A stretch of 64,000 nt of DNA. It comes from Okamejei kenojei. Lineage: Eukaryota. The position numbers and the translations under genes were made by a program. Numbering within the stretch: position 1 is the stretch's first letter; every line of letters starts with the position of its first letter. Positions 28,496 through 62,886 of the stretch are shown here, piece after piece. The notes under the pieces are model-generated. The model made no database searches. It saw nothing but the letters and a program-made list of their open reading frames with translations, and had not been told where the DNA came from. The DNA is taken from contig CM069140.1 in NCBI GenBank assembly GCA_035221665.1, forward strand, positions 16,926,001 through 16,990,000. The letters are read 5' to 3'.

Positions 28496-28544
28496 GAATA
28501 TGTTGGACTTGAATACTAACCACCTGGACTCCGACATGCCAGGT

Positions 28545-32397: not shown

Positions 32398-32495
32398 CAG
32401 TTGAAGAAGGGTCTCGACCCAAAACGTCACCCATTCCTTCTCCCCAGAGATGCTGCCTGCCCCGCTGTGTTACTCCAGCTTTTTGTGTCTATCTA
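32398..32495 (+). mobile_element. Penelope-derived terminal repeat
   Basis: TTGAAGAAGGGTCTCGACCCAAAACGTCACCCATTCC...TTTTTGTGTCTATCT. Confidence 0.85.
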
Positions 32496-34424: not shown

Positions 34425-34550
34425 TTAAGTTTAGAGATACAGCGCGGAAACAAGCCCTTTGGCCTTTGCGATCGCACACTAACACTATCCTACGTACACT
34501 AGGGACCATTTTTACCAAGACAATGAATCTATGAATCGGTATGTCTCTGG
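34425..34550 (-). mobile_element. HE1-like SINE, 3' fragment
   Basis: GTTTAGAGATACAGCGCGGAAACAAGCCCTT tail and CCTACGTACACTAGGGAC, as in the 55837 copy. Confidence 0.65.
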
Positions 34551-39632: not shown

Positions 39633-41651
39633 AGTAGAATTTCAATCCATACTTTCCCCATCCTTGATCCCTCGCACTCTCCAGGCTCTGTTATGTGCTG
39701 CTGTTATTTGTGAGCTCGTCATTTTTGTTATGTCTGGTTCTACTAAGCAGCAGATTGAACGTGCCATTTCCTTCCAGTTTGGAGAGCTGGACCATCCATA
39801 CCTTGAGTTAATTTCGGGATTGCCGTGTGACCGTTGAGAACATTCTTTTATATCGCTTCCATTCTGTTATCTCTTTAATTGCATCCTTAATTAAAAATTA
39901 ATTCTACGGCTTGATATTTTAAAAACCAAAACGTTGGGTAATGTTTCCCTGATGGGTTGTTCAGCATACATGCTTGGATTGAGAAGGACATGAATGATTA
40001 ACAAAATCCTATTCCTGTGCTATATCTGCACCCTTAGCTTTTCTGGAAAGGGCCACAGAAGTGGAAACTGCATGATGTGTTCTCTCTCTTCATTCCTCTT
40101 TACCGAAGCCCAATGTATGCAAGCTAGTTACATCACTTAATTACTAAACCCTGCTGTGTTGTCTCCTGGCAATTTAGAGGAAATACAATGGAAAACAGAG
40201 TGGGCAGCCTACGCATTGCACGCTATCTCCATCTAATTATGGCATGTGAATAATTTTGCGCCTTAATAATTGGTAGTTATGGGATAATATTGAAACTGGT
40301 CACAATTGCACAATATATCTACAGAAAATGTAGGTAAATAAATATTTGTAAAATGCATAAATACTGTATGAGGGTTATGAATCCATTTTTCAGCAACAAT
40401 CAGACCTTTTACAGGGCATATGGTGCCAATAGTGAGAGACTGCTCTAGGAGAGAGTGGCTGTTGCTAACTTCTCTGTGCAGACAAGTTATTTTCCCAGGT
40501 TGGTCTCTGTGGCTTGCAGTGAGCATATTGATGCTGTTACTGTTCCCCCATTTCAATGTAATTTTATTTATGGGACTCTAGTATTTTTCCTTTTGACATC
40601 CCAAAGAAGGAATTCTTATGAGGGAGCAAATAATTCATGGTAAAGAAGGCTTGTTGCATTAGAGGCTGGTGCGAATGTCTACCTGGGTTCTGGAGTGGAA
40701 CTGATGGCAAAACAATTGTGATGAGCAGCACCTTTGGGGAAAGATCTCTGCTCATGTGTAACAGCTGAATAAGCAAAAGTCAGTTATTGACCTAAATTTG
40801 GAGGGGAGATGGTGGGGGAAATAAATTGCAAACACTATTGTTGGAAATTAAGTTTTTGATAAGTGTGCTTATTTTAAATACACATCTTTAAAGCCAGTGG
40901 AATCTCTGAGTGTACTGTGGCATTTTATTTGCCTTAAATGGATGTATTGCCTTTAATTTAGTTGTATTAACATTACTCTAAGGTGGAGTTTTAATAAAAA
41001 ATGAAGTATTTTGTGGCCAAAACCAATTACCAATGAAAAATTCCTGTATATTAACTGAATATAAATTCTGCAGCTACCATATGGGATTTTACATTTGGGT
41101 CTGTCTCTGGGTTTGATCCAACTCACTCGGTTACCTGTTAAGATGACATTTAGAAGCCGTGTGTTCTTCATTTGTAAGCAAATAGGTGTAAATAATTATT
41201 GGATTTCCATACTTAGTGAAATCCAAACCGTAATCTAGACACATTTCTGTATCCTTAATTCCATATTAAATTTGATCTTTGGTATTAAACATTTTGAAGT
41301 TCTTCCAAATCCAGATTACTTTGGATTTTGGGCGGTTTAGAATTTGGATGAAGTTTTGAGCACACATTTTTATGTTGAAGACAACAAACGCGTATTTGGC
41401 ACCATTCACATATTTTCCAAAGTAATCCGTAAAGATTTTTTTTCCAGCTGCAGTCAAGGCTATGCAGGGAAATGTGGCAATCCATTTCTGTGTATCAAAT
41501 TTATACATAGCTAAGAGGTGAATAACTAATATGAATTTGGTTTTAATTGAGGGTGGATGTTGACCAGGATATTTTTTGGAAAATAGCACCCAAATTATAA
41601 GGCATTGCAGCTGATGTTCATTTAAACAATATACTGAACCTCAATTAGTGA

Positions 41652-42100
41652 CCAAAAAAAGACAAAGTGCTGGAGTAATTCAGTGAATTATGCAGCATCT
41701 CTGGAGAACATGATCAGGACCCTTCAGACATTGTAGTGGGGGCGGGGGAGGTGAAGAAAGCTGGAAAAGAGGAGGGGTGGTGCAAAGTTGGTCAAGTGAT
41801 AGGTGGATACAGATGAGCAGGGTTTTTGATCGGCAGATGGTTGGACAAAGGCCAGAGATGAAAATACAGTGTGTGTGTGATATGGAGATAACGATAGAAA
41901 AGGCTTGAAATGTGAAATCGGAGGAAGGCATATAGGTGACAGGACCACGGGAAAAGAGGAGAAATTGAAAGTTCTGGGACGGTGGCGAGCAGGGAAGTGA
42001 GGGAGGAAATCCGGTGTGAGGGGGGGAGGGAGAAAGAGGTGGAATGCAGTGAGGTTTGTCGGTACGTTACCTAAAATTGGAGAATTCAATGTTCATGCTG
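41652..42100 (-). mobile_element. Penelope-like element 3' end
   Basis: The reverse strand gives SMNIEFSNFR*, then a pyrimidine-rich UTR, then TCTGAAGGGTCCTGA..GTTCTCCAGAGATGCTGC. Confidence 0.8.
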
Positions 42101-42262
42101 TGTAGCAAGGAACTGCAGATGCTGGTTTATAATGAAGATAGACCCCAAATGCTGGAGTAAGTTTTGGGTTGAGACCCTTCTTCAGAAGATGGGTTGAGAC
42201 CTTCTATTTGTGAGATGCTGCCTGTCCCACTGAGTTACTCCAGCATTTTGTGTCTATCTTCA
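42100..42262. mobile_element. Palindromic Penelope-derived element (internally deleted)
   Basis: AAGGAACTGCAGATGCTGG...GAGACCCTTCTTCAG...GAGTTACTCCAGCATTTTG. TTCAATGTT occurs near both ends. Confidence 0.75.
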
Positions 42263-42351
42263 ATGTTTATATTGTTCATACAGGACAGAGGGGAGGGACA
42301 GTATCAATTTCCGGTGCAACATCAACCATCTTGACTTCTCCACTCCCAGAG

Positions 42352-42476
42352 CACGAGGAGAAAACCCACGGGTTCACAGGGAGAATGTGCAGACTCCCCA
42401 CAGACAGCACCTGAGATCAGCACTGAACCCAGGTGTCTTGGTCTAAGGCAGCAGATCTGCTAGCTGTACCACTGTC
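42352..42476 (-). mobile_element. HE1-like V-SINE fragment
   Basis: GAAAACCCACGGGTTCACAGGGAGAATGTGCAGACTCCCCACAGACAGC is the reverse V-domain. Confidence 0.75.
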
Positions 42477-42564
42477 CCCTTTATTGTGCACTGGTCTCCT
42501 TGATTAATGATAAATGCAAAAGCAGTTCAGTGAAAGTTTGTAGACTAGTACATGGAATCGTTTT

Positions 42565-42730
42565 AACAAGGAACAGCAGATGCTGGTTTACAAAAAAATG
42601 ACATTGCTGAAGTAACTCACTGTGTCAGGCATGATCTCTGGAGAACATGGATAAAACTGGACTCTTCTTAAGTCCTGAACTTCACCTACACATTCTTCAA
42701 AAAAGCTGCCTGGTTATGCCAGCACCTTTT
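42565..42730. mobile_element. Degenerate Penelope-derived element
   Basis: CAAGGAACAGCAGATGCTGGTTTAC...GTAACTCA...CTCTGGAGAACATGG. Confidence 0.65.
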
Positions 42731-42769
42731 TTTTTTTTTACCCTGGAATGGGTTGTTTGTCTTAAAGGT

Positions 42770-43100
42770 GGGAGAGACTAACCTTGTATCGGCTGGAATT
42801 CAGATAAGTGAATCTGATTATGATTGAAACGTAAGACTGAGGGATTTTGACAGGGTGGATGTGAAGAGAATGTTTCCTGCTATGGGCGAATTTAGGGGTC
42901 ATCCCTTTCTGGACAACTGAGTCACAAGCCTTTGGTATTCTGCTTCCATGGTCTTTTGAGGAGTAATTTTTAAAGATTTGCAACACAGATTCAGATATGT
43001 CCTTGATATGAGATAAAAGGTTATTAAAGTTAGGTAGGAATGTGGAATTTGCAATCAGATTAGTGAGTATTTTATTGAATGGTAGAGAAGGATTGTTTTG
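42770..43100 (+). mobile_element. Old CR1 3' fragment
   Basis: ATGATTGAAACGTAAGACTGAGGGATTTTGACAGGGTGGATGTGAAGAGAATGTTTCC, a decayed GFDRVD..MFP. Confidence 0.6.
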
Positions 43101-43619
43101 ATGAGGGGCCAATTCCTACACACAATTAGTATGTTCAGGTGAAATGGTGTTTTCAGTACAATGCATGGAATAGATGTATAATATAACACCTGATCTTAAT
43201 TTTATTTACCTTGATCTGAAGCTACCTATGGTGAGATTGGAAATTTGATGTTTCTCTGTGAAAATTCCTTTTGCTTAAAATTGATTGCAAAAAAATGGTT
43301 AAATTAGCTGTTTTCAAATTACAGATTTTTATCCTGAAATATTCCAGTATTCAGCTTGCTCATGGTGAGCTGTGATGTAAATATATGCGTCATATGCTTA
43401 TCCAGAAGTGTAGAACTCAGCAAGAGATCGATGAAGCTTATGTGATCAAGGTAGTTGCATAGTCACTTGGATGTGGAAGTGGGTGAAGAAACGTTTAGTC
43501 TTCTAACATTTCCAACATCAGCAGCATTTCAGCACTGTTGGAAGAAATTCTCAGACACCATAACGAATGCTTATGTGGGTAAATGTGTGTTCCACTGTGG
43601 TACTAGAGGTTGAAAAAAA

Positions 43620-44420
43620 AGGTTAAATCAAAGGGATGCAAGGGATGGCATCAGATCAGAAGATGTGGAATCCTTTTGGGTAAAGCTAAAACTGCAAGGA
43701 TGAAGAGTTAGTCGAGTAGCTATTACTAAGGAGAAGTGCTTGGGAAATTGAAATCTCAGAAGAGGGATAGGTAACCATGAACATATGGACTACACCCCAG
43801 GGTTCTGAAAGAGGTGGCTTTAGCGATTGGGGCGGCATTAATGGTGATCTTCCAAGAACCACTAGAGTCCGGAGTGATACCAGTGGTTTGGAAAATTGCA
43901 AATGTTATCTCGCTGCAGGGGGCGAGGCAAAAGAGGGAAGACTATAGTAGAAGCAAGGAGCTGCAACTGCTGGTTTATACCAAAGGTAGAAACAGTTCTG
44001 GGGTAAGAGTTCAGTGGGTGGGACAGCATCTCTAGAGAAATGCAATGGGTAACGTTCTGGGTCGGGACTCTTCTCCAGACAATGGGTCCCAACCCACAAT
44101 GTCGCCCATCCTTTTTCTCCAGAGGATCTGCCCGACACGCTGAGTTACTTGAGCCCTTTGTGTGCCTATCTGGGGAACATTCTAGGCTGGTTAGCCTGGT
44201 TTAAATGGTTGGCAAGATTTTAGTCCATGATTAAGGATGAGGCTTCTGGTGGCCAAATAAATGGCTATTTTTAAAGCACAGTTTGGCAGATTTGTGATTA
44301 GCACGGGCGTCGAAGGTTATGGGGAGAAGAATGGGGTTGAGAGGGAAAGAGAGATCAGCCATGATTGAATGGCGTAAACACAATGGGCTGAATGGCCTAA
44401 TTCTACTATGGCTTATGACT
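43620..44420 (+). mobile_element. Decayed CR1 with an inserted palindromic Penelope-derived element (43950-44170) and a CR1 tail (44300-44418)
   Basis: IFQEPLESGVIPVVWKIANV (CR1 ORF2). Inverted arms at 43950-44170. Tail GATCAGCCATGATTGAATGGCG. Confidence 0.75.
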
Positions 44421-46512
44421 AAAATTGAGCAATGGGGACAATGAAAATAATTGGTATCTCTGAAAATTGGCAGATGCATGATGAACAATGGCTACTTTAG
44501 ATAAACCTTCCTTGTGATCAGATTTCAGGCATGATTCTTGCGACAGTCCAACTCTTCTAGTTTTGTGAATATGTGTGGGTGCTGCTGTTGTGTAGATGCT
44601 GGTGTCTTTGTGCTGTATCTGTGCTGTCCCATTCCACAAATGTAGATCTCATGCAGACACTGCCTGGTAAGCCTACCAGATTGTGGACATTTTCATGGAG
44701 CCTTTTGGTTGAGTGGCAGACTGAATGAAGTGTTGACCTTGAAATCGGTTGGATTTATAGTGTGATTGCTTCCAGCTGAGAGATCCACAGAAGGGGAATG
44801 TATGAACTTAGTATTGTTGATGCAGGTTGTGGCAAACAATAATAGCCAGCACTTGTGTTTGATTTTAACATGGAGATGAGTGTGAGAGCAGAAGAAGGCA
44901 AGGCAGTGACACATGAATACTTGCCCATTTGTTCTTCAACCTAATGTTAATTGTGTCAGTCAGGGTATGTATGATAAAGCGTAACGCTGGTTGGCAGAAC
45001 ATTTCTTTACACGGTGGAGCTATACAATTACCATTGTTTAACCACAAAGAGGGTTGAATCGATAATCTCTGGTAAAACTTCTGAATTGCAAGCAGTTTAT
45101 CTTCTCCGTGTATCAAGGGAGTTCAATGCCCAAGGTGCCACCCCAAATTAACTTCCCACTTATCGCCACACAGTGGCTGTGCACCAATTTTTTTAGTAGT
45201 TTATATCAGAAAAGGTGAATCGCAGACCTGTCCCTTTAAAGGCAATTAAATGTTTCATAAAAAGCTGCATGAAAAATATTCTACTGTGAAAATATAGGAT
45301 CAGCAAAATAAATCAGTTTATATACAGCTGAAAAGAGCTTGCATGTACATTGACTGTGTAATTAAGTAATGCATCACATCCAGCTGTGTTGCAGCCGTAC
45401 CAACATCTCCAGATTAAGATAACTTGCTGATTGCACATTACATTGTTTTTCAAAATGGGAGCTATGGCCCTCTGATGGTGGACTATAAAAATGGGTCACT
45501 GACTTCGCTCATTTCGCTAAACACTGGTCCATAGATCAGAGGACTGTTATTGCACAGGATCCAAAAGCATGAAAGCATACACCACCAGATTCATGAATAG
45601 CTCCTTCGGTGCTTCTATTATTAGACATGTATATGAATGTCAATCCAGACAACAGATCTGATGAATAAAGATACGTGCTAACTTTTTTTTAATTAGGAGG
45701 GTAGCGGAAAAATATTGAAGCAGTGTGGTGTTTGCTTGAAAATAGTTGGTCCCCTATGTAGGTGAGAGGGAAGAGATGATACTTGAGCATCTTGTTGGTT
45801 ACAGTAGAAGTGGTCAATAATGATTGATCATGGGAAAGGACTTTTATTTTACTATATTCTGTTATTTAACGGAGGAATGGTGGCTACCGAACTTTGTGAA
45901 TAGTTTGGAAAGTAAAGGACCCGAATGATGCAGTGCAGTTTCCATGTGGGTATGTGGCAAATTTCTCATGGTGTAACTCTGAGCAGTTTTTTTTGTGATG
46001 CATTTTTAATTGCACTGGGCAAATTCTTGATCATATTGCGTGAGGGAATTGTTCACATAAGTGTGATTCTCTGTGCCGGGTTTTCTTGCTGGTATATTGT
46101 ATGGGTGACCTCGAATTGAATGTGCAGCTGCAGCAGCTCTGGTGCTCCAGGCGTATGTAAAGCACTCTTCACTGTTATTGCATCAGTCTTTCCCTGCGTT
46201 GCAAACTCTGTTCTGCTGTGGATGAACTCATCCAGATTTAGACCCCTGGTCTTCACAGCTTTTTACCGAGTTCAAAAGCTAGAGATGGGACTTTCCTCCA
46301 ACCCAAGGATTGGACAATTACAACTCTGATTTGATGCTCAATTTGAATTAATTCAAAGTGGTGTTAATATTTTTGAAGTTGTTGAATTGATTTAGATTGC
46401 TTAACCTCTGACTTGTCTTTTTCTGAAAATGCATGGTATTTGTAGCATTTGCAAACATATAATGTAATGCATGTAGTAATGTTACCATTAAACCACTCCA
46501 TTTGTTTACAAG

Positions 46513-46665
46513 ATTAGTTTAGTTTATTGTCACGTATACCGAGGTACAGTGAAAAGCGTTTGTTGCATGCTAACCAGTCAGCAGAAAGACAAATACATGA
46601 ATAAAATTGAGCCATTCACTGTGTACAGATACATAATAAGGGAATAACGTTTAGTGCAAGGTACA
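46513..46665 (-). mobile_element. LINE 3' UTR (same family as the 9045 copy)
   Basis: TTAGTTTAGTTTATTGTCACGTATACCGAGGTACAGTGAAAAGC..GCTAACCAGTC. Confidence 0.75.
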
Positions 46666-46730
46666 GTAGATTATTCTTTATCGTCACATCAACTTTTATT
46701 CCACAAACATGCCAGATTTTGTCACATGCC

Positions 46731-47263
46731 CCAGTACTGAGGAAGGACATTATTGCCATAGAGGGAGTGCAGAGAAGGTTCACCAGACTGATTCCTGGGA
46801 TGTCAGGACTGTCTTATGAAGAAAGACTGGATAGACTCGGTTTATACTCTCTGGAATTTAGGAGATTGAGAGGGGATCTTATAGAAACTTACAAAATTCT
46901 TAAGGGGTTGGACAGGCTAGATGCAGGAAGATTGTTCCCGATGTTGGGGAAATCCAGGACAAGGGGTCACAGCTTAAGGATAAGGGGGAAATCCTTTAAG
47001 ACCGAGATGAGAAAGACTTTTTTCACACAGAGTGGTGAGTCTCTGGAACTCTCTGCCACAGAGGGTAGTTGAGGCCAGTTCATTGGCTATATATAAGAGT
47101 GAGTTGGATGTGGCCCTTGTGGCTAAGGGGATCAGAGGGTATGGAGAGAAGGCAGGTACGGGATACTGAGTTGGATGATCAGCCATGATCATATTGAATG
47201 GCGGTGCAGGCTCGAAGGGCTGAATGGCCTATTCCTGCACCTAATTTCTATGTTTCTATGTTT
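46731..47263 (+). mobile_element. Young CR1/HER1 LINE, 3' ~530 bp
   Basis: PVLRKDIIAIEGVQRRFTRLIPGMSGLSYEERLDRLGLYSLEFRRLRGDLIETYKILKG. (TTTCTATG)n tail. Confidence 0.93.
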
Positions 47264-47432
47264 ACTCTGCAGAGCAGGTACAATGAAAAACTTGCCTGTT
47301 GCAGCATCACAAGCACATACTCGGACAATGCACTAAACATAAATTATACATAAATTGTGCAAGACAGTGAAAATTACTGCAAAACAATGAGACATTAGTG
47401 CAAAAAACACAGTTAGAAACACGTCTGAGACA

Positions 47433-47772
47433 GTAGACAATACGTGTAGGAGTGGGCCAATCGGCCCTTCGAGCCAGCACCGCCATTTATTGTGATCATG
47501 GCTGATCACCCACAATTGGGTGCCCCGGTCCTGCCTTCTCACCATATCCCCTGACTCCGTCCGCTATCTTTAAGATGCATGAGGTGGTCTGTAGAGTTCA
47601 GTTGCTGAGGTAAGCTTAAGGTTGAGCAGTTGGTTCAAGAAGTATGTCAGGGGTTATGTGGAGAAGGCAGGAGAATGGGGTTAGGAGGGAGAGCTAGGTC
47701 AACCATGATTGAATGGCAGAGTAGACTTGATGGGCCGAATGGCCTAATTCTGCTCCTATCACTTATGATATG
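47433..47772. mobile_element. Two short CR1 3' tails (minus 47433-47575, plus 47647-47772) inside a Rex-like UTR
   Basis: GATCATGGCTGATC hairpin motif. CCATGATTGAATGGC..GGGCCGAATGGCCTAATTCTGCTCCTAT. Confidence 0.7.
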
Positions 47773-48039
47773 AATGACAAGTTCAAGGAGCTTTTCAACT
47801 ACTTTCAGCCTTTTTGGTGCAAGGTTATGAGAGCTTTAAATGACCTTTCTCAAAAAGTGTGTTGCTTAGTATGTAACCGTAGACATTGAAATATGTGCCA
47901 CTTTGCAGCATTCATGAGTGAACACCTCTAGGGGGAAAAAGGAACAGGACATGGAGATAGCAAGATGGATATACAGTGTGTTGTACAATAACATGTCTGG
48001 CCATTTTGACATCTTCTTTAAGTGGTGGTTTGGGATCTC

Positions 48040-49960
48040 TTGAAGAGCATTGAGATTAGGGACTCCCAGAGCTTGATGCACTCTGCCCCAGAGGCCAGAA
48101 AGGAGATTGCTGTAGTCTTGGCAAAGATCTTTTTACCCTCTAGCCACAGGTGATGCCCTGAAGAACTGCAGAATAGTCTTTGTTGTTCCTTTATTTCAGA
48201 AGGGAAGTAGGAATGATCCAGGAAATTATAGGCTAGTAAGATTCATTTCAGTGATAAGTCCGCTACTGGAGAGGATTTTTAAGAATAGGATTTACCCACG
48301 TTTGTCGGAGAATGGGTTAATTAGGGCCGTCAGTATCGATGACAAAGGTAACTGATGAGGATTGAACAGTGGATGTTCTCTAATTAGACTATAGACTGTT
48401 TTAGACTAATTAGACTGTTTTACAAGGCCAACTCCTGGTAGCAGATCCAGAGGATTAAGATGTATGGGATTCATGCTGACTTGGATTCACAACTGTCTTA
48501 TGCTTTGAAGCCAAAGGGTGGTGGTGGAAGGGTGTTATTGTGGCGAGAGTTCAGTGATCAGTGATGCTCCACAGGCATCAGTGCTGCACCTCTGTGATAC
48601 ATATGTGGTGTCAATATAAATGATCTGTGTGAAAATGTAGATGAGCTATTAGGTTTGCAGGTGATAATAAGATGGGGAGAGTTTTGGACGGTGAAGAAAG
48701 GCTATCAAGGGGTGCAGCTTGATATAGATCAGTTACAGATATATGTGGACAGGGAAATGCCAGGTGGAGTTTAATCTGGCAAGTTTGCGATGTTGCACTT
48801 TTGGAAGCCAAATGCAAGAGGAAAGTGTGCCGTTAATGGCAGGACTCCTAACAGCATAAAAGCCCAGTCCCATGGTACAAGTTCATTCCAAGAGCTCTCC
48901 TGGGTTTGCCCTGATTCGAACTCTGAGATTTACGGTAATGGCCACTCGTCGGTACTCTAGGCTCTCGTGGACATTTTTCAACATGTTGAAAAATCTTCAC
49001 GACTCTTCCCGTGCTTATCTGCCATTAGCGAGTCTTCCTGAGTACCTGCCGTTAGCGTTACGAGCCGCTAAGAAACGTCCCCGAGCTCCGACGTACCCGC
49101 TACGTTCATTTTCCGTGCTTACCACGAGTTTGATTTTTTTTTAAACTCGGGAGAGCTCTTGGAATGAACTCGTACCGTGGGACAGGGCTATTAATGTACA
49201 GAGGGGTCTTGAGGTCAAAGTTCATACTGCCCTGAAATTGACAACACAACTAGATAATATTAAAGATGGCATATGGTTTGCTTGCCTTCATTGGTCGTAG
49301 CATTGAATATCAGAGTCAAGAGGTCACGTTGCAGCTTTGTAAAACAATGGTGGATCTGTATTTGTGTATTCTCTGGATGCTTTCAAGAGAGTTAGAGCTC
49401 TTAAAGACAGCAGAGTCATGGGATATGGGGAGAAGGCAAGAACGAGTTACTGATTGTGGATGATCAGCCATGATCACAGTGAATGGCGGTGCTGGCTTTG
49501 ACGGCCAAATGGCCTACTCCTGCACCTATTGTCTATTGTGTGCAGTTTGGGAGACCCCAATACAGGAAGGAAATGAATGCTTTGGAGAAATTGCAAAAGA
49601 GATTTTACCGGGATGCTGCCTGGATTAGAGGGTGTTAGCTTTCAGGAGAAGTGGGTCAAACTTGTATTGTTTTCTCTGGAGTCTCCGAGGTTGATAGAAG
49701 ACCTGCGAGAAGTATGTAAAATTAATAGAGACATCCATCGGGTAGACAGGCGGAGCCTTTTTCCCCAGTGTGGAAATATCTGTCAAATGTTAGATAAAGG
49801 GCATTGCTTTAAGTTGAGGCAGGGAAAGTTTAAAGGAGATTTGTAGGGTAAATTGGTAGGTACCTGGAATCCATTGCCAGGGGTTGTGGTCGCAGCAGAT
49901 ACATTAGTTGCATTTATGAGGCTTGTTAATAGGCACTTGGATATGCAGGGAATGTCGGGC
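48040..49960 (+). mobile_element. Long degenerate CR1 ORF2 with nested insertions
   Basis: PLFQKGSRNDPGNYRLV, AYGLLAFIGRSIEYQSQEVTLQLCKTMV and RDFTGMLPGLEG..LFSLE. Contains a MITE and a CR1 tail (49375-49537). Confidence 0.8.
48860..49190. mobile_element. MITE with ~45-bp terminal inverted repeats (PIF/Harbinger-like)
   Basis: AGCCCAGTCCCATGGTACAAGTTCATTCCAAGAGCTCTCC ... GGAGAGCTCTTGGAATGAACTCGTACCGTGGGACAGGGCT. TAA on both flanks. Confidence 0.88.
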
Positions 49961-50087
49961 AAGGCGTATCTATGCGGTGCTTGGACATGGGTCTGTAGGG
50001 GTTGGACCACAGGGGATTGGATGGTGTTATGTGGAAATTAATTTTTATATGAGTGATTTTAAGATGAGTGATCTTTGATCTTTAACC

Positions 50088-50195
50088 AGACTGAAGAAGG
50101 GTCTCGACCCGAAACTTCACCCATTCCTTCTATCCAGAGGGGCTGCCTGTCGTGCTGAGTTGCACCAGCGTTTCGTGTCTATCTTCAGTTTAAAT
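50088..50195 (+). mobile_element. Penelope-derived terminal repeat
   Basis: CTGAAGAAGGGTCTCGACCCGAAACTTCACCCATTCC. Confidence 0.85.
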
Positions 50196-51261
50196 AGGCA
50201 CCATGTTTGGCACAGACATTGTGGGCTGAAGGGCCTTTTCCTGTGCCGTACTGTTCTAAACTAAAATGCATCTTTGAACAAAGTGATAATCTTGGAGCAG
50301 CAGTTTAAATTTGCCTTTGTGAGTTTCCCAAGGAACAGTCCATGCAGTGCCGGGTCCTCTGAGTTCAGCTGCACAGGCTATAAACATGAATAAAACTGCT
50401 GTTTCCCCACACAGACATCATTGGCAGATGTGGATTCCATGGAGGGGATAGATGTCATTTTTTTCCTCACTAGTTTTGAAATGAGTCCTGATTGATGTCT
50501 CCCTGGGTGAATGTCTCCATGTGATTTGAGCTTGTCAGCCATGACATAACACAGTTTAACATTCTGAAACTATCACAGCATTTCTCTTGTTTACCATTGT
50601 TCAAAAAAATCTCTCAATGCACACTATCACATATTATTCTCCCGTTCTTAACTACTACTCCTTTGAGGCTGTTGATGTCTCCAAAATTGTACACTATATT
50701 GCATCCATTTGCGTGATTCCCTTGCTCTAATTTCCCACGGGAGTTTGCTATCAATTGACTTTTATGCCTATCGGTAGTGAGTTTAACCAAAGTTAGACCA
50801 AAGAATATGGAACACTGATCTAACTTGGGTTACTTTTGATCATTCATAGCCTTGATCTTGCTGCTAACTGAAGAGTGCCTGAGGGTGTGGTGCCTGTACC
50901 ATCAATATCAACAAATTATAGGTATACAAAATGGGGTCATTCAAAGGCTGCTCATGGGTAAATGCATATTGCAAAATAGATTCCGGAATTGGAGGGAAAT
51001 CAAGAGAAGGGGCTGCATGATAAATACAGGCCCTCCTCAACTTGGGTAGTAGGTGACTTGCATTAACTCATGCTTGCCTAAACAATTCATGATGGGTGAC
51101 GCCTTTTTGGGAATGACCTGTGTTTTTGCAACGAGAGAATGGCCAGGGCTTCCTGTCCGCTTCATGGATATAAGAGTCGCCCGGCCTCGCTGCTCTTCCA
51201 GTTTTGTTGGTGTGACATTGGGAAGGTGATCGAGAATGAGGGAGGGGGTTTAGATTAACAC

Positions 51262-51480
51262 CCGGTCAAGTCGCCAGCATCTTCCACAAGGAGCACCAGC
51301 GAGCCCTTCTTCACCGACTGCTGCAGCGACCGGTTGATGCGCCTGTTGTAGCCCCTGGCCGACAGCACTTTCTTCAGGTGCTGCCACCGACAGGATGTGC
51401 CCAGCCACTGGGGCTCCTTCCCCTCTCACCAGCTGGTGCTTCTTCCAAATGGCCGTCGGTTTGTCCTCTGCCCCCTCCAT
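51262..51480 (-). pseudogene. Degenerate histone H1-like sequence (copy 1)
   Basis: GCCATGG start. Translates MEGAEDKPT..PVAGHILSVAA, then after a frameshift HLKKVLSARGYNRRINRSLQQSVKKGSLV. This resembles the H1 globular domain LKKALAAAGY..NSRIKLGLKSLVSKGTLV. Confidence 0.7.
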
Positions 51481-51559
51481 GGCTGTTGCAGCCGCCTCGT
51501 CCGGTCACTTTGCGCACTCGACTGCTCCCCCCCTCCACCACCACTGCCGCTTCCTCTCC

Positions 51560-51812
51560 GGTAGAAGATGTTGGTGACTGCGGAGGCGATGACGGGGGGC
51601 GAGCGGTCAACAGCAAGACGTTGCAGCTGGTGAGAGGGGAGGAAGCCCTACGGTGACCGAGCACATCCTGTCGGTGACGGACACCTGAAGACAGTGCTGC
51701 AGCTACAACGTGAGCCGCAACTACTGCAGTGTCAACCTTGCGGTGCAACAGGCGGTGACGAAGGGCTCGTTGGTGCAGACTAGCGGCATCAGGGTCTAGT
51801 TTCAAGGTGAAA
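51560..51812 (+). pseudogene. Degenerate histone H1-like sequence (copy 2)
   Basis: TVTEHILSV, HLKTVL, YNVSRNYCSVNLAVQQAVTKGSLVQTSGI (51704-51790) and SFKV (51798-51809), with frameshifts. Matches H1 KGTLVQTKGTGASGSFKL. Confidence 0.75.
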
Positions 51813-51972
51813 TTACACAAAGTGCAGGGGTAACTCAGCAGGTTGACTGCATCAGTCTGAAGATGGGTCCTGAGCGAAACTTCACCTATCCATGGTCTCC
51901 AGACGTGACCTGCTGAGTTACTCCAACACTCATTTTGTGTGTTAACCAGCACCTGCAGTTCTTTGTATCTAC
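51813..51972. mobile_element. Penelope-derived element with a short inverted arm
   Basis: GTAACTCAGCAGG..CAGTCTGAAGATGGGTCCTGAGCGAAACTTCACC..CCAGCACCTGCAGTTC. Confidence 0.75.
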
Positions 51973-52897
51973 CTAGTTTTAACGTAATTCCCGCTTGCGT
52001 AAAATCTAGCTTACACGGTTGTTTACGGAACGTGACCCTGAAGTCGGGCAGAGTCTGTTTTAAGACACTTAGCTGTGTAGAGGAAAAGGATCTTGCACAG
52101 TGCACTTTCAAGATCCCTGAAGACAAAGATGGCCAAGTAAGGTGATTAGTAACGGCGTATGAAATGTCCCTTTATTGATAAGGGGCCATGTTAAGCTAGG
52201 CCACAGAATACTGTGTAAATTATCTTGTCACAAAACAGGAACAATACAATACGAGATGGGTGTGGAGGAAATCTTTGCTGGGGTTGGATAACTGCAATTA
52301 TGAGTATCGACTGGCCATGCTGGGCTTGGTCTCTTTTGAAACAAAGGAGGTAAAAAGGTATAATTCATGAGAGGCTTATCCAAGGTGAGTGGAGAGAGCC
52401 CACTTAACAATTAGGAGATGTAAATGTAAGGTATTTGGTAAAATGATGAGAGGATCTGTTTGAAAGAGGCAGTAATTCATAAAAAACACAATTAAATTAT
52501 ACCCGAATGAGCACTGGACAAGGCATAACATAAAATGCTCTTCTTTCAATTGGCTGGATACGATCCTCCTAGGCAGTAAATATCTTTGATTAAATATTGT
52601 AATGGTTACTCTCTCCTTTATAAACAGTTATTGTTGATGAAGAATTCAGATTAGTTTATTATCGTGTGCACCAGGGTGCAGTTGAAACTCCTCGTTCACA
52701 TGAAGCTCACAGTAATAATAAATGCAATGGCGTGCGGAAAACAGCCGAATCATTCAAAATTCTGTAATCTGAAATCGTGCAAAAAAAAAAAAATTAAAGT
52801 GCAATAAAGGAATAACTGACCGAGGTGGAGATGCAATGTTGAAAAGGATTGTCACGGGTTTAGTTTGTGTTGTAATGTGCTTCAACATGTTATGAGG

Positions 52898-53125
52898 AGG
52901 TAGACACAAGATGCTGGAGTAACTCAGTGGGACAGGCAGCATCTCTGGAGAGAGGGAATGGGTGACGTTTCAGGTCGAGACCCTTCTTCAGACTGATGTA
53001 ATTCAGGGTCTCGACCCTAAACGTCACCCATTCCTTCTCTCCAGAGATGCTGCCTGTCCCGCTGAGTTACTCCAGCATTTTGTGCCTACCTTCGATTTAA
53101 ACCAGCATCTGCAGTTCTTTCCCAC
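52898..53125. mobile_element. Palindromic non-autonomous Penelope-derived element with a perfect 13-bp TSD
   Basis: ACATGTTATGAGG at 52885-52897 and 53126-53138. Near-perfect inverted arms. Minus-strand core CTGAAGAAGGGTCTCGACCTGAAACGTC. Confidence 0.9.
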
Positions 53126-53539
53126 ACATGTTATGAGGTGATGTTATGCTTATTACAAATAAGAGTTCATCTTTAATTGTGTTTGTGCAAGTTATTCGAA
53201 GGACCAGAATTTTTTCAAAAATGAATTGACTTGTGTCACCAAAGCTCTCAATTGTGCAGAGAGCAGGGAAAGCTGGTGCTTGCTGAAGGGTTTGGGGGGG
53301 GTAAGTCTCTACAACAGACTGAAGTGGAGCAGCTGCAGCCGAGGCCATATTTGCATTTACCAGTATTTTTGTAGTGACGGTTAAAGGATTAAATCTTTGG
53401 TACTTTTCATATCAGATCAGAGTGACAAGAGGATCACAGAACAGTTTATATTTATGTAAGCTTGTATTGCAACAAAGAACTTAACGCTTTTTCAGCACAA
53501 GGTTGTTACCAATGAGCCAAGAATATGAACACAATGCTG

Positions 53540-53668
53540 AAATGTCTGAAGAAGGGTTCCAAGCTGAAACATTACCTATCCATGTTCTCCATAGATGCAG
53601 TCTGATCCGCTGAGTTACTCCAGCATTATCATTTTGTAAACCAGCGACTACAGTTCGTTGTTTCTGCA
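53540..53668 (+). mobile_element. Penelope-derived terminal repeat
   Basis: GTCTGAAGAAGGGTTCCAAGCTGAAACATTACCTATCCATGTTCTCC...GAGTTACTCCAGC. Confidence 0.8.
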
Positions 53669-54198
53669 GTTAACTGTGGTGGTTTTAGTACAATGTATTC
53701 GAAGGAATGTGAACGAACCATCAGGCTGTTGTCATTCTTGAATTCTATTTTCATTGGTGTGGGAAGGGATTTCCAGACACTTAAAATTCATGGGAGAAAT
53801 TTCTTATCATGAATGCTTACTGTAGCCGAAAAGCAGAATTGTAATGCTTGCTGTTGCCATCCCGGCCTCCTTTGGTGTATTGTGATTTGTCTTGTTGCAG
53901 ATGCAGTGCTATAAAAGATTGAAGCCTGATTTATTGATGCTGCCTGCAGTCTCTGACTTGACAATGACATCCCTCTGGGGCTTGTGGTCAGTGTTGTCGT
54001 GTGATTGATGCCTGTCAAGCTGCAGGTTTAGCAGATTGCAAGGGGTGGAGAACAACAGATGCTGGGCTGTGTGTTCCATATGACACAGAATCTGCGGCAG
54101 ATGGGAGCACACTCCCTGCATTGAGCAATGTCTTGCAAAGGTTTATTTGCCGGAACAGAACCGTGTTCGTAAAAGAAAACAAGTGATTTCTTTGTATT

Positions 54199-54219
54199 GT
54201 GTGTGTGTGTGTGTGTGTC
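54199..54219. repeat. (TG)n microsatellite
   Basis: Direct read. Confidence 0.85.
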
Positions 54220-54378
54220 TTTACATCATTCAAGGTGCCCAGAAAAATTGGGAAAGATGAACAAAAACAGTCAACATATTTTTTGACTTTGCAAGTATTT
54301 GAGTTACAATAATTTGAGTTGGAAGGGTTGAATTATGTTTCTAGGAAATGAGAGGCTCGGGTCAGCACAACACAATCT

Positions 54379-54410
<32 letters not shown>

Positions 54411-54530
54411 GGATGCAAGGGTTGTGGGGGGGGGGAAGGTGCAGGGGTTGTTGGAGGGGGGTGCAGGGGTTGTGGGGGATGCAAGGGTTGCGGGGGGGGG
54501 GGGGGGGGAATGCAGGGGTTTTGGGATGAA
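54379..54530 (+). repeat. Poly-G tract plus G-rich tandem repeat (GGGGG[A/G]TGCA[A/G]GGGTTG)
   Basis: A run of about 30 G followed by about five degenerate units. Confidence 0.85.
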
Positions 54531-54609
54531 GGGCAGAGAAAATGGCAGAAGTGATGTTTTGTGCTTGTGCCTCAAAACCACCGGTCATTTTGAAGATCAT
54601 ATGGATTTG

Positions 54610-54900
54610 CACAGCATAAACGAGGCCCTTCAGCTCACCAAATCCATGCCGATCATTGACCAACCATTTACAATGTCCCTACACTAATTCAATTTAATCC
54701 CGCCAAATCCCATGAACTTCACTTCCCCAGATTCTACCACCCACCCACACAATAATTTGACACCAGTGGCCAAATCATCAACTTAATGTTCCAGGGATGT
54801 GGGAGGAAAACTGAACAGTTGGAGGTCACCCATGTGGCCACAGGGAGAAATTGCAAACTCCTTAGAGACAGCACCAGAGGTCAGGACCAAACCTGGGTCA
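54610..54900 (-). mobile_element. Older V-SINE
   Basis: GGATGTGGGAGGAAAACTG..CACCCATGTGGCCACAGGGAGAAATTGCAAACTCC..GACAGCACC. Confidence 0.7.
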
Positions 54901-55254
54901 TATATTTTCAGTTCAAACAAATGCAGAGCTTGTAGTTTTAAACCATGTAAGTGGAAAATTCAATTTTTTTTTCCATGAAAAATAATGTGCTGGAGGAACT
55001 CGGTGGGTCAGATCTTCAGATGACATGCATGAGTATCGGTCAGCTTATTTGCTGCTGAAATAGTCATGGTGTCATACACTATGGAAATGAGCCATTTGGC
55101 CCATCTCGTCCATGCTGGCCAAGAAGTCCCATCTAAGCCAGTTAGATGCCCCCTTCTATATACCCACATGTGGCCCACATTGATCAAAAGCTTTCCTTTC
55201 CTTGTAGCTGTAAAAATGGCTGTTATTAATCTGCAAGGCAGTTTGAGATTAAGG

Positions 55255-56223
55255 AGATGGTGAGTCTCGTGAAGGTGGATAAATCCGTCAGGACCTGATG
55301 GGTTTCTTCAGAGAGGAGGATGGAGGAGCCTAGACGAAGATCTTTGCGTCTTCGTAGCCACAGATGAGGTTCCGGAGGTTTGGAGCGTAGCTAATGTTGC
55401 TTTTTAAATTAAGAAGTAGAGGTAGTCCAGGGAATAATAGCCTAGCGTTGATGGTACAAAAACTAATGGAGAACTATCTTTAGGATAAGATTTGCTCCCA
55501 TTTGGAAGAGAATGGGTTAATTCGGGACAGTCAGCATTGCTTTGTACATGGCAGGTCATGTCTTACTAACTTGATCGAGTTTATCGAGGAGGTTACAAAA
55601 GATGATTGAGGGTAGGGTGGGGGTGTTCAGTAGGAATCTGTGCTGGGACCTCTGCTGTTTGTGACATATAAATGACTTGGACGTGAATGTAGCCGGGTTG
55701 GTTGGTAAGTTTGCAGACGATACTGAGATTGCTGTTGTGGACCGTGAGGAAGGCCATCAAAGTAGAGCGGGACATAAATCAGCTACAGAACAAGGTGGAA
55801 AAATGTCAGGTGGCGTTTAATACGACCAAGTGTGAAGTTTAGTTTAGGAATAAAGTGTGGAAAATAGGCCCTTTGGCCCACTGAGTCCGTGCTGAACAAA
55901 ATCAACCGTACACCAGCTCTATCCTACGTACTAGGGGCAATTTATAGAAGCCAAATGAACTTACAAACTCGCACACCTTTGGAGTGTGGGAGCAAACCGG
56001 AGCACCCGGAGAAAATCCACGCGGACACAGGAAGAATGTCCAAACTCCATACGGACAGCACCTGAAGTCGGGATGGAATCTGGCTCTTTGGTGCTGTAAG
56101 GCAGCAACTCCACTGTGCTGCCAAATGGGTTGCACTTTGCGAGGTCAAGTGTGAGAGGAAAATATATGACCCGTGGCCTTTAACAGTATTGATCATGTGT
56201 ACCAGTTCGTAACTCCCTGGAAG
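55255..56223 (+). mobile_element. Degenerate CR1 RT region interrupted by a SINE
   Basis: HLEENGLIRDSQHCFVHGRSCLTNLIEF and SKFADDTEI remnants. Confidence 0.8.
55837..56122 (-). mobile_element. HE1-like tRNA-derived V-SINE, near full length
   Basis: The reverse strand has the head GGCAGCACAGTGGAGTTGCTGCCTTACAGC, a V-domain, and the CR1-type tail GGGCCAAAGGGCCTATTTTCC..AAACTAAAC. Confidence 0.85.
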
Positions 56224-56490
56224 TAGCACACAGTGGTAGAGCTGTTGCCTCGTTCGATCCCGACTAGGGAAGCTTGTCTGTGTGGAGTTTGTATGTTCCC
56301 CTTGTGACCGTGTGAGTTTTCTCCGGGTGCTCTGGTTTCCTCCCAGATTCTAAAGACCTGCAGATTTATAGACAAATTGCCCCTATGCGTGGGATCCGAA
56401 AGTGGGATAACCGTTTACAGGTAATCAATGGCCAGCATGGATTACAGGGGCTGAAGGGCCTGTTTCCATGCTGAATCTCTATCTCTAACT
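56224..56490 (+). mobile_element. HE1-like tRNA-derived V-SINE
   Basis: CAGTGGTAGAGCTGTTGCCT (A box-like), GTTCGATCC (B box), V-domain GTGTGGAGTTTG..CTCCGGGTGCTCTGGTTTCCTCCC and tail GGGCTGAAGGGCCTGTTTCC. Confidence 0.85.
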
Positions 56491-57769
56491 CCACATTCTG
56501 CACTCTGAACTAATGAGTGGGCCAGGTACCAAAATGGTAGCATTTCTGAACAATTTAGATGTCAGATTATTGGAGTTTTGGTGCACATTTTTTTACAGTG
56601 CCTATATTTGACAGTGCATAAATTGGTTCCTCGTATGAACTGAAGAATGAGCATCAATGAATGACCCTGCAGAAAACTTAATCGATTCATGAGACTGTTG
56701 ACTGACTGAAGAATATGTAAAGACGTTATCAGATGATATGAAGTTTTATCATCAGAACTGGTTTCTTAAATCCAAGCACCTTTCACAGATCCTAAAGATA
56801 CCTGTTCTGGTACTTACAAAGTATATATTTGTTCTAAGGGCAAACCTACTTGCCCATCTCAAATCTGGTTGTTTTCATCCTGATAAGGATTAGAAAGCAC
56901 CTTTTCTCAACTCTCTGAATAGGTAATCCTAATTTTCAGAGCATATGCAGCCTGGAATCTGATGGGCTCAAGAAAACTATCTTCAATTTTACTTGAATTT
57001 GAGGACAATCTTGGTTTCTTTGTCTAATACCATTTCATCGATTATACTTGCCTCAGCAGTTGATGTCATAGAGGCTGTTTGGTTAGTGAGGGGGCTGCAA
57101 TGGTCCTTCTAGGCTATGGATAGGAAGGGGGACAATATTCCCACTTTTGGTCACAGTTTGGTGTATTCTGCTATGAAATAATACATGCACATTTGGGTAA
57201 AAGTCATGTAATACAAGGTGAAATAGTTCACTATTTGGCCAATTAGTTGCCGGAGTGTTTTGTACAAGAATGACCAACTATAATCCCGAATCTCTACAAG
57301 ATGCAGAAAACGATATTCTGAATCTGAAATAAAATGCACATGATAACTCTCGGCAGGTTGGGCAATATCCAAGGAGACACCATGCTAGTGTTTTGGATTA
57401 AAAATAGTGTTGGAAATCAGTGGGTCAGGTATCCCTGGAGGGAGAAAAACAGATCAGTGATACTTCATCAGAACTGTAATAGTTGCCAGGGGTGGAGTGT
57501 AAATATCTGTGCTGGGATGGTGACCCAGGTTACCCAGGAAACATGCATACTATTTAGTGGCAGCTGTTAGTGAGTGGAGGAAACCAAGTAACATATTGGA
57601 ATTATGAAAACGACTGCAGCATTTGAAGTAAATCCGAAGCAAGTATATCCTGGAAATACCCAGCAGATGGGGCAGCATTAGTAGAAAGAGAAAAATTAAT
57701 GTTACATCTCTCATAAGGAAAATGTTTCATAACACCACCTTCCATGTCATGGCAGGGCACTTGAGAAGA

Positions 57770-58220
57770 AAATCAAGGGGCAAAGTCTATTTGGTTTTAT
57801 GAAAGCCAAATCACCGTTGCCTTATTTATTGGACAACTTTGAAGAAGGGGCATTCTGTGGATATATCCAGGTATACAATAGTTGTTGTATACCTGGATTT
57901 CTAGGAAGCCTTAGCTAAGGTATTGCGTCATGGTATTTTGGAAAATAAAGACTCAGTGTTGGTGGAAACCATATAAATAGTAGATTGGCTGGCTAATGGA
58001 TAACAGATAGTAGGTCAGTTCTCTCCATTCCTTCTCTCCAGAGATGCTGCCTGTCCCGGAGAGTTACTGCAGCATTTTTTGTAGAAGGTGTTGGTATTAG
58101 GGCCTCGACTATTTACAAATGGCTTAATTAAAGGTGACAATATGGATTTTTGATATTTTTGTTAAAGACAGAAATATGCCTCAAATTAAATTGTGAGAAG
58201 GAGATGAGGCTGCAAAGGGG
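57770..58220 (+). mobile_element. Old CR1 RT fragment with an inserted Penelope-derived piece (58020-58085)
   Basis: GTATACCTGGATTTCTAGGAAGCCTT (VYLDF.KA). CCATTCCTTCTCTCCAGAGATGCTGCCTGTCCC. Confidence 0.6.
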
Positions 58221-59554
58221 TTATTGTCACTTGTTACTGGCCAATGGAGCATTCTGTGGAAGGTGAGTTATCTAAAAGTCTCCATTCACTCATTAGTTTA
58301 TGGTTACCCCACGGTTTTACCTGATCAGAGACGTTTACAACCCGCGCCCACCTTTCTAACAATGTAAGGAGCTTCATTTGTCTCCTATGCAGTTCTGCTA
58401 AAGTGTCTGCAACCGAATCATTAACTCTTTTCTCTTCCCATGGATGCAGCCTAACTTGCTGAGTGTTTCTAGCACTTTCTATATTTTGTTTTGGATTTCT
58501 AACATTTGCATTTAGTTTACATTTTAATTTTCATGAGGGATGGAGTGTTTGAAGCTGAGTCGTCGAGGGTCATCGGCCTGTAACGTTGACTTAATTTTTC
58601 TCTCTGTGTTGCCTGATCAGCTGGGTATTTTCAGTCAACATTCGGGTCAACTTTCTGTCAGATTTGCAGCAACTCCCATGTTCTTTATTTCAGCAAAGTG
58701 CCAGCACAGAAACCAATTATGTTGCGTGGACAATCACTGCCTGTAACTTGTCATAAATCTTCTTCCACATTTCTTCCAATTTAATGCTTTACTTTTCCAT
58801 TTCTGATGGAGAGATAATAACCTAAACTGTTGGTATTATTTTTTTCCTTCACAGGTATTGTCTCATCTGCAGAATGATCTGTGATTTTTTTTTTTTTGCT
58901 TCAAATTCTCAGCATATGCAGGTTTTCTTTTTGCTTTGGTTGATGATTTTGCTCGATTGCCTTTCAAGAGAACTGGAGATAGCAACAAAAAAGTCAATTT
59001 ATTTCCTTGGGGAAAGAGACTGGAATATCTCTACATGATGGCATAGACTTGAAGCATTCAGGATCAGAATACACTGAAAGGTGCTACATCTATATAGGTT
59101 GTTGCAGATTTGAATTGAAATTCATTATTTTTCCCATCACTTTTTTTTTGTAAGACCATGGAGTGTATCAATGTGCCTGATGTGAGACTTGTACAAAAGA
59201 GGGTGTTATGATTTTTAAGAATATTTGGTTTACTATCTTTTACTTAGATTCTGCTTAGAATATAGTGGGAGGAAACATTTTGCAGCACTTCGTATTGTTG
59301 CAATCTGGTTACTGTTATGGGTTGGAACTTTTCAGATGTTTGATGGATCTATGAGGAATTTGGATTTGTTTACAATTAGGATATCTGTTCCTTAATTTGA
59401 ATGTAATTACTGCTGCATTGCAGAATCCTGCACACCTGGCCTCAATACTTTGAGCAGATACATGTTAGATTTTCTTTGCTATCTTCCAGTGTGGTGGGAG
59501 TTGCTACATGACATGATTTGAAATGTTCCTGCAAATGTTTTTCTGATATGAACT

Positions 59555-59805: not shown

Positions 59806-59911
59806 TTAAATAGTGCTCATTGTGCAGAAGACACGGTAAGGAACAATTTTTAAAAAGAGGGTAATTTGGGGAGCTGTGATTGAAGAGGAGACTTTTTAAC
59901 TTAGTTGGATA

Positions 59912-60008
59912 AAATGGTCTGAAGAAGGGTCTCAACCTGAAACGTCGCCCATTCCTTCTCTCCAGAGAGGCTGCCTGTCCTGCAGTTACTCCAGCATTTT
60001 GTGTATTT
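59912..60008 (+). mobile_element. Penelope-derived terminal repeat with a well-preserved hammerhead-like core
   Basis: ATGGT-CTGAAGA-A-GGGT-CTCA-ACCT-GAAA-CGTC-GCCCAT, with the core at 59919-59946. Confidence 0.85.
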
Positions 60009-60469
60009 TTGGATAAGTTGAGGAAAGAAATGAGAATTTCAGAGGGAAGAGTTTCACAGTGATTTGGTGAATTGCTGTCTGTTGGATTTGGATAGACTTT
60101 GTGGGAAAAGATTGAGTACAATTCTAGAAGGTGAATGGATGGATAATGCTCAGAGTCTCACTTGGGGTGATAAAAAGGTGTTAGGAGATTGGAAAATGTT
60201 AGTCTGAAGTTGACAACTGTTGTACATTTTGGGGTGATATCAATAGAGGATTTGTCCCATGTGGGAACTGATGTATGTGGAATGTGCTGCTGCACTATGG
60301 CTGTGCATTTTGAGTAGACTGTCATGAATTGAGTTTGTGGCTAAAAGAATATGAATAGTTTGTGGCATTTTATCTTGGTAAAGTGATTTTATTTTTTGGT
60401 AATGCTTTATCATTACCGTGTGTGCTGAGATAGTGAAAAACTTTGCATGCAATCTAGTGTAAACATTCT

Positions 60470-62165: not shown

Positions 62166-62734
62166 TTTGAACATAATATGTGTGTGAACAGGTGATCGAT
62201 AGTTGGTGTGGGCTCGGTAGGTCGAAGGGCCTGTTTCCATGCTTATATTTCTAAACTGAACTAAATTACTTTAAATATTCTTTCTGAAAGTGTTTAATAT
62301 GCACCGTCTGAGTCAAATTTAAACATGACATTTTATTTGTAGATTTGTAATAACTAAATTGTTGGACTGTGAACCACCAACAGTTCTTTGCACTTTTAAA
62401 GGTTGCCTGTTTACTTAAAATGCATGTCTCTAATTCTTGACAATTTTCAATAGCAGTTTCATTGGCAGATGGTCAGTTACATACCACTCTTAGTGGTTCA
62501 ATAGGCCAGCCCATTGCTTTTTGGTGTTAAATTAAGTAAGCTTAATTGTACTTAATATTTGATGAGAGCAGAACATTTATTTGCCTTTGGCCATCTATTG
62601 TAAATAAACACCGCTCACTGGAGGCTTATGAACTTGCAGCATTACACCATGGTTATGATAACTTTACCATGCAGTTAATTTCATCGTTGTATTTTAGTGA
62701 GAAGGGATGAAACATAACAACTATTTAACTGTCG

Positions 62735-62886
62735 ATAGGCGCAAAATGCTGACGTAACTCAGCGGGACGGACAACATCACTGGAGGCATTCCTTCTCTCC
62801 AGAGATGCTGCCTGTCCCACTGAGTTACTCCAGCATTTTGTGTCTATATTCGGTTTAAACCAGCATCTGCAGTTCCCTGCTACACA
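62735..62886. mobile_element. Palindromic Penelope-derived element lacking the central core
   Basis: CAAAATGCTGACGTAACTCAGCGGGACGG..CTGGAG / CTCCAGAGATGCTGCCTGTCCCACTGAGTTACTCCAGCATTTTG..CATCTGCAGTTCC. Confidence 0.8.

Follow-up and report, generated by a model that had tools for sequence, protein, structure and literature searches.

A minimal hammerhead motif in an intron of Okamejei kenojei probably tips a terminal-repeat stub of a Neptune-type Penelope-like element

Minimal hammerhead ribozymes (min-HHRs) in the terminal repeats of Penelope-like elements (PLEs) have already been described (Cervera and De la Pena, 2014). A single min-HHR gave no cleavage and dimers gave low cleavage (PMC4209133). 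In the available part of a further study, a PLE hammerhead cleaved only with protein, and insertion in vitro did not depend on it (PMC11167929); there, and in the available part of PMC8557442, cutting by PLE hammerheads in vivo is stated as unclear. Head-to-head pairing of copies is a known PLE arrangement (PMC3846280 and PMC8557442, as far as their available text goes).

The stretch of DNA analyzed here as a whole (the window; 64,000 nt) begins with the 5′ part of a gene of the SSBP2/3/4 family, presumably SSBP3, judging by sequence and synteny. Intron 4 begins at 6731 and extends past the window end for ~132 kb in all, exon 5 lying ~138,900 nt from the window start. The GC-rich 5′ region of the gene (860-1290) is full of short GCTGG-type repeats. 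About 70 kb past the host gene, at contig positions 17172032-17177347, lies a gene with three single-exon CUB domains, presumably CDCP2-like and a neighbor of SSBP3. Other LINE-type RT ORF fragments, which we assume to be CR1/L2-like, occur in the window at 26684-27106(-), 39250-39633(-), 46611-47072(+) and 23842-24240(-), and a repeat related to such fragments adjoins the focal copy at about 59555-59805.

The focal core spans 59919-59946, and its CTGAAGA box, extra A, stem II, GAAA and C-G-T-C all lie where the original prediction had placed them. CUGANGA, GAAA and UH boxes are present around a paired helix II, the palindromic 15.2-16.2 pair is C-G at 59943-59944 with no loop III, and the cleavage site is predicted after 59946. 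The focal copy deviates at two CpG sites: base 59938 turns the 10.1-11.1 pair from G-C into G-U, and base 59934 alters the loop; in the family, the G10.1-C11.1 pair is found in 80 of 113 A-type and 39 of 51 B-type copies. The proposed three-pair stem I (GGT/GCC) held in part: two pairs are family-wide, whereas the third belongs to the focal copy only, the commonest combination at that position being A-C (113/210). Bases 59917-59918 derive from the element, and the copy-specific base 59916 is possibly a non-templated G. The whole stub at 59913-60008 comprises the hammerhead motif and ~60 nt, its first bases (59913-59916) resembling filler. Missed at first was the larger unit around the motif, a retroelement terminal repeat that has the motif at its tip and shows a tail, target-site duplications and inverted pairs. 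We consider it likely that the motif at 59919-59946 is a minimal hammerhead tipping a pLTR stub of a Neptune-type PLE, and one that does not cleave the host pre-mRNA. The features of the window are compiled in Table 1.

Table 1. Coordinates of the host exons, the focal copy and the other family copies in the window (position 1 is the first base of the window)
Feature	Position	Strand	Remarks
Host gene exons 1-4, SSBP2/3/4 family	1397-1452, 1797-1869, 2098-2159, 6646-6730	+	
Solo pLTR stub, whole insertion, 96 nt	59913..60008	+	probable Neptune-type PLE; short 3′ end class, without tail
8-nt target-site duplication, left copy	59905..59912	+	
8-nt target-site duplication, right copy	60009..60016	+	
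CTGAAGA (59919..59925), then extra A (59926)	59919..59926	+	
Stem II, 4 bp and 4-nt loop	59927..59938	+	10.1-11.1 is G-U here
GAAA (59939-59942) and C-G-T-C (59943-59946)	59939..59946	+	palindromic ACGT as dimer stem III; GUC triplet; architecture per PMC4209133
Stem I, 5′ strand	59916..59918	+	pairs with 59947-59949
Head-to-head stub pair	8622..8872		hairpin -170 kcal/mol; both cores broken
Head-to-head pair	15640..15867		both cores broken
Head-to-head pair	21172..21389		decayed
Core-only stub ending at cleavage triplet	28544..28573	+	C3 changed
Head-to-head pair, subfamily B	28581..28778		plus arm with intact boxes and one stem II mismatch; hairpin -161 kcal/mol
Inverted stub cluster, rearranged	42100..42266		
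Head-to-head pair	43952..44168		decayed
Head-to-head pair	51787..51966		decayed
Head-to-head pair	52896..53125		minus arm core intact; hairpin -177 kcal/mol
Head-to-head pair without cores	62724..62885		
Other solo plus stubs	3584, 4512, 14955, 25431, 28986, 32402, 50086, 53544, 58025, 58401 (within 3584..58481)	+	none intact; four without readable core
Other solo minus stubs, starts	14251, 17416, 41722, 42652 (within 14131..42652)	-	

The hammerhead motif is not a chance likeness, because a minimal-hammerhead descriptor gave 28 matches in 842.6 kb, all in this PLE family, against 0 in each of five dinucleotide shuffles; other hammerhead families were absent from the same 842.6-kb sample. Rfam scans of the window and the locus returned no hammerhead family at E<=10. 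This silence is expected, because the motif is without helix III. Subfamilies A, B and C are present, and the stem II reconstructed earlier for subfamily B was recovered, with a TTCG loop in 18 and a T-G closing pair in 17 of the 51 B-type copies. Differences between subfamilies in stems I and II are one-sided only (U-A to U-G), with pairing kept and weak covariation; no two-sided change was found among the four commonest pair types per position and subfamily.

Folding predictions, which leave out protein and tertiary contacts, gave the hammerhead fold -5.4 kcal/mol vs. -23.5 kcal/mol for the best fold. Neither an extended helix I nor a distal helix was found in the consensus folding of 23 copies, where the core pairs with a downstream pyrimidine stretch instead, and the predicted stem I pairing was 0.02-0.04 in the focal copy and 0 in four body-linked copies. 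A lone copy would have no stem III, a 2-bp stem I and a core masked by the predicted downstream CCUUCU pairing, so that a second copy as partner, and probably the element protein as well, would be required for cleavage.

Of 29 independent loci with a GIY-YIG domain, 26 have the repeat in the same orientation 56-596 nt past that domain, and the repeat reappears joined to the 5′ end of the ORF in 8 of 30 loci, two of which are partial tandems headed by the endonuclease end (L179, L181). Since the repeat stands on both sides of the RT-GIY-YIG ORF, it is a pLTR, and this linkage upholds the earlier assignment to the minimal type I hammerheads of the PLE kind. RT motifs, a C-x4-C-xx-C linker and GIY-YIG follow one another in this order in copies broken by stops and frameshifts. 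The linker fits the CX2-5CxxC of Neptune or Nematis, a signature that marks both alike according to the available part of PMC8557442. The Pfam matches (RVT_1, E=0.004; GIY-YIG, E=0.015) were both below the cut-off, and homologues carry PF00078, some of them PF01541; the closest named proteins to the element RT are those of rays and sharks (65-78%). An ATG is inferred ~165 nt past the core, and a long Pro/Thr-rich stretch separates the N-terminal motif of the element from the RT (L149, L150, L151). Three ray/skate proteins named as host genes, kinases and a chitinase-domain protein (P0004, P0008 and P0009), contain the element RT segment, which may be an exonised or mis-annotated element. The literature search found no skate or ray paper on this PLE family, which may be recorded in Repbase, Dfam, subscription journals or supplements.

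A genome-wide search with the GIY-YIG endonuclease gave 124,490 candidates. The copy density in 1.17 Mb of genic DNA was 0.43 per kb, which extrapolates, if the sample is typical, to ~1.2 million copies in the 2.76-Gb genome, ~190,000 of them with intact cores. A target-site duplication of at least 8 nt flanks 28 of 120 solo copies, compared with 1.8% in shuffled pairings. The repeat is ~95 or ~130 nt long, and its 3′ ends fall into two classes ~35 nt apart (profile positions 90-112 in 226 and at least 129 in 172 of 505 copies), a difference that corresponds to the PLE tail.

In the window itself, a profile search recovered 35 family copies, 21 on the plus and 14 on the minus strand, with nine head-to-head pairs among them; plus is sense and minus is antisense relative to the SSBP-family gene. 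The ten plus-strand cores and the minus-strand core (C3 at 52991) listed originally are all in place, but the 10:1 strand skew they implied was an undercount. By the criteria applied, intact cores occur only at 28672(+), 59917(+) and 52996(-), of which 28672(+) has a stem II mismatch besides its intact core boxes and is part of an inverted pair. Hence, instead of around ten usable sense cores in one pre-mRNA, there are two intact ones, lying 31 kb apart, one of them within a -161 kcal/mol hairpin. Near-perfect hairpins of 85-100 bp occur in the host intron at 8622-8872, 28581-28778 and 52896-53125; they might be acted on by A-to-I editing or small-RNA processing, and the intron hairpins yielded spurious miRNA matches in the Rfam scan.

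The upstream body was absent in 238 of 302 readable copies (79%), and in the body-less copies agreement with the element declines from 75% at -1 to 58% at -3, reaching background by -6. Most stubs start 1-5 nt before the core; many match to -5, with C at -4 in 31 of 49, so that the start is not one base. Among the non-tandem ORF-linked copies, five of six start at profile positions 2-12, and the sixth (L188) exactly at the cleavage site. The 5′ ends do not accumulate where cleavage is predicted: of the 505 copies, only five start at or near this site, compared with 12.7 expected under uniform starts at 20-60, so that the templates were presumably for the most part uncut at the hammerhead.

Further evidence on the start of the copied RNA came from exact mini-tandem joins, in which a truncated core is joined to a new copy; 1,208 were counted genome-wide, whereas the control pattern gave 0. 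The join bases were tallied by hand in 100 listed joins of the 1,208. In this subset, 78 resume at A-3, the preceding base being C in 43 (templated), G in 24, A in 6 and T in 5; G thus accounts for 24 of 35 non-templated A-3 joins (p=2e-5 against 1/3). Within the same 100 of 1,208, joins resuming at -2 with another base at -3 had G in 10 of 16 (p=0.016 against one third). In ordinary genomic joins, the G excess was weak (8/18 at -4 and 13/31 at -3, both p=0.09), and an excess at -3 in search-derived loci (14/24) was discarded, as the search query itself begins with GG. An untemplated G is the mark of a copied cap in L1 and SVA (PMC4859970 and PMC9341517, in their available parts), and fixed stub starts together with the non-templated G suggest run-off copying to a capped RNA start. 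No paper on a cap-derived G in PLEs was found in the literature, although subscription journals and supplements may contain one. Three or four 31-35 nt core units stand in a row at a few loci (L106, about 5880-6000, reverse strand; L118, 65-100), an arrangement resembling the birth of a retrozyme-type array.

For the stubs and the inverted pairs, we lean towards an explanation in which the RNA begins with a cap immediately in front of the core and the RT starts internally and runs off. The element RNA would start, capped, at the A (or G) before the core, in the initiator-like TCAGT, and would serve uncut at the hammerhead as the template for stubs. The element RT would prime from nicked DNA and start internally, ~65 or ~100 nt beyond the point of cleavage; with the 5′ repeat of the RNA as template, 95-135 nt of synthesis would bring it to the capped end, where run-off leaves a stub, and two run-off cDNAs would give inverted pairs. 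Fixed stub ends and the join G point to both the start of the element RNA and the start of copying, which makes a model of PLE replication testable.

Some cleavage may nonetheless occur, as indicated by the start of L188 and by the commonest join gap. In the tandem joins listed (100 of 1,208), the most frequent gap length, seen in 12, is the one that joining at the predicted cut would give; only three of these read the exact join and two a near one, for which microhomology suffices too as an explanation. In a bolder reading, which we regard as tentative and rather doubtful, about a million stubs would record a strong-stop-like step (an RT start inside the 5′ repeat, run-off at the hammerhead, the cap copied as G, and a template jump). 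The hammerhead, at the extreme 5′ end of the element mRNA, would act as a protein-gated decapping switch that takes off a capped leader of 31 nt, and those tandem joins that fall on the cleavage site would be relics of in vivo cleavage.

The fixed ends, the target-site duplications, the lack of a body in 79% of readable copies and the existence of subfamilies A, B and C would also suit a self-propagating SINE-like or retrozyme-like family, in which the solo copies would have retained an internal promoter, be transcribed independently and be copied again in trans by the Neptune protein; retrozymes have been proposed as non-autonomous PLE derivatives in the available part of bioRxiv 10.64898/2026.07.22.740005. 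Such a family appears unlikely. A and B types are both joined to the 5′ end of the ORF (L193, L194; L182, L185), so that no stub-only subfamily was seen, and the copies are dispersed and without long tandem arrays. As a second-round process, it is compatible with the run-off explanation.

We give still less credence to splicing as the source of the joins, whereby the hammerhead module would be a 163-nt exon reaching from an acceptor-like, pyrimidine-rich YAG before stem I to a donor-like site, AAG|GTATG, where the ORF begins, and ORF skipping or back-splicing would unite two modules in the dimer required for cleavage. Most of the 3′ regions listed (21 in all) have an acceptor-like end and about half have a GT start, and an intron of Drosophila virilis Penelope ends at helix I (PMC4209133 and PMC2377424, as far as their available text shows). 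The exact donor-acceptor join occurs in four independent genomic copies (L211/L219, L212, L213, L223); however, at least six other joins are off by a few bases, and the shared AG explains the exact ones via template jumping. Moreover, the AG that splicing would remove is kept in 58-68% of stubs, and the join expected from removal of the upstream intron was one duplicated event, with 0 of 220 locally. An intron-like loss of the 3′ region from genomic copies was rejected, one duplicated event being explainable by microhomology. In the permuted copies L203, L204/L205, L213 and L223, the donor-like site at the ORF start is fused exactly to the base before the core, being either a splice product or a template jump.

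Whether sense copies carry a cost for their host genes was assessed in seven gene regions with 1.17 Mb of genic DNA, the gene strand being taken from exon or domain hits, not from annotation; three of the seven are CUB/CSMD-like genes, which may be narrowly expressed. Sense copies numbered 263 and antisense copies 242 (p=0.37). Cores could be scored in 302 of 505 copies, the other 203 being too gapped or short. Intact cores were found in 50 sense vs. 31 antisense copies (p=0.045 in the 302 readable copies; 95% interval for the sense share 0.50-0.72), or 23 vs. 13 under strict criteria (p=0.13), a slight sense excess. Divergence in 137 A-like copies was nearly the same on both strands, at 8.2% (sense) and 8.4% (antisense) for non-CpG core sites and 6.6% and 6.7% for non-core sites. 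At CpG sites it was 19% in sense vs. 27% in antisense copies (p=0.006 when tested by site), whereas the test by copy gave 23.4% vs. 27.5% (p=0.07), a difference that may be due to chance. The core changes are mostly CpG transitions, as had been supposed (G12 G>A 29/35, C15.2 C>T 19/25, G16.2 G>A 37/45). The stubs decay at neutral-looking rates, without loss of sense copies in introns.

The original prediction had also offered selection against cleavage as a reason for the core mutations and had recommended the sense-antisense comparison, the outcome of which is opposite to that expected of such selection. Selection against cleavage is not supported, because neither sense copies nor intact sense cores are depleted. 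This also makes it very improbable that sense intronic cores are active ribozymes which cut the host pre-mRNA alone or as dimers, most of them having been inactivated by selection. The core boxes, the extra nucleotide and the ACGT palindrome of the focal copy are intact; elsewhere in the 1.17 Mb there are eight same-strand intact pairs less than 1 kb apart, and in vitro one out of nine PLE-related dimers from Xenopus showed good cleavage (available part of bioRxiv 10.64898/2026.07.22.740005). Against this, the intact sense cores of the host gene are spaced 20-43 kb apart, the hammerhead fold is far less stable than the best fold, the core changes are of the CpG kind, and a single min-HHR is without cleavage (PMC4209133). 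Intronic copies are likely harmless passengers, not working ribozymes. With intact cores numbering on the order of 100,000, the genome permits a strong sense-vs.-antisense test, and this first pass shows no cost to sense copies.

The idea that the palindromic copies are MITEs (DNA transposons) which look like hammerheads by chance has next to no probability: a third of the copies do form long inverted repeats (163 of 505 lie in head-to-head pairs), but two thirds are single arms, the arms of the pairs meet at variable points, there is no fixed element bounded by terminal inverted repeats, and the direct linkage to RT and GIY-YIG and the 28 vs. 0 descriptor matches led to its rejection.

Compared with the known systems, the element family is neither a canonical hammerhead, a retrozyme array nor a MITE. 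With non-LTR retrozymes, known from vertebrates including one sampled cartilaginous fish, it shares non-coding PLE-derived units with type I hammerheads; these are by definition tandem repeats of complete units, whereas the copies here are dispersed stubs or inverted pairs (available part of bioRxiv 10.64898/2026.07.22.740005). A retrozyme-type tandem array of complete units was not found, the copies in the window being solo or inverted and the tandems genome-wide being short and truncated.

The EN+ PLEs of the Neptune clade are alike in having the RT followed by a C-terminal GIY-YIG, the Cys linker, partial tandems, an inverted 5′ copy, a 30-40 nt tail, 5′ truncation and target-site duplications, while body-less stubs with a common 5′ edge at the hammerhead dominate here only, as far as the available text of PMC8557442 and PMC3846280 goes. 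The solo pLTRs of A. vaga, by the partial account available, are without target-site duplications and are ascribed to recombination or deletion, unlike the stubs here. Poseidon of Anolis carolinensis (PAc), in the available part of PMC11167929, also has two 3′ ends matching two internal RT starts downstream of the hammerhead, and its uncut RNA serves as the template, as inferred here; its ATG overlaps stem II, whereas the corresponding position here reads AAG and the apparent ATG lies downstream.

With the min-HHRs of metazoan PLEs, the motif shares the core boxes, the extra nucleotide after A9, G10.1-C11.1, the palindromic 15.2-16.2, the missing helix III, the pLTR location and the occurrence as mostly solo copies and opposite-strand pairs. 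Descriptor counts of ~4,000 in the coelacanth and ~9,000 in Xenopus stand against the copy and intact-core numbers extrapolated here, the methods of counting being different. Helices II and I have 4 and 2 bp here, compared with 7-8 and 4-5 bp in Schistosoma, whereas a variant min-HHR of D. virilis has a 2-bp helix I, as here. The ribozyme class is thus already known, and judged by its sequence the family would be a further example of a min-HHR in PLE pLTRs, with a shorter helix I.
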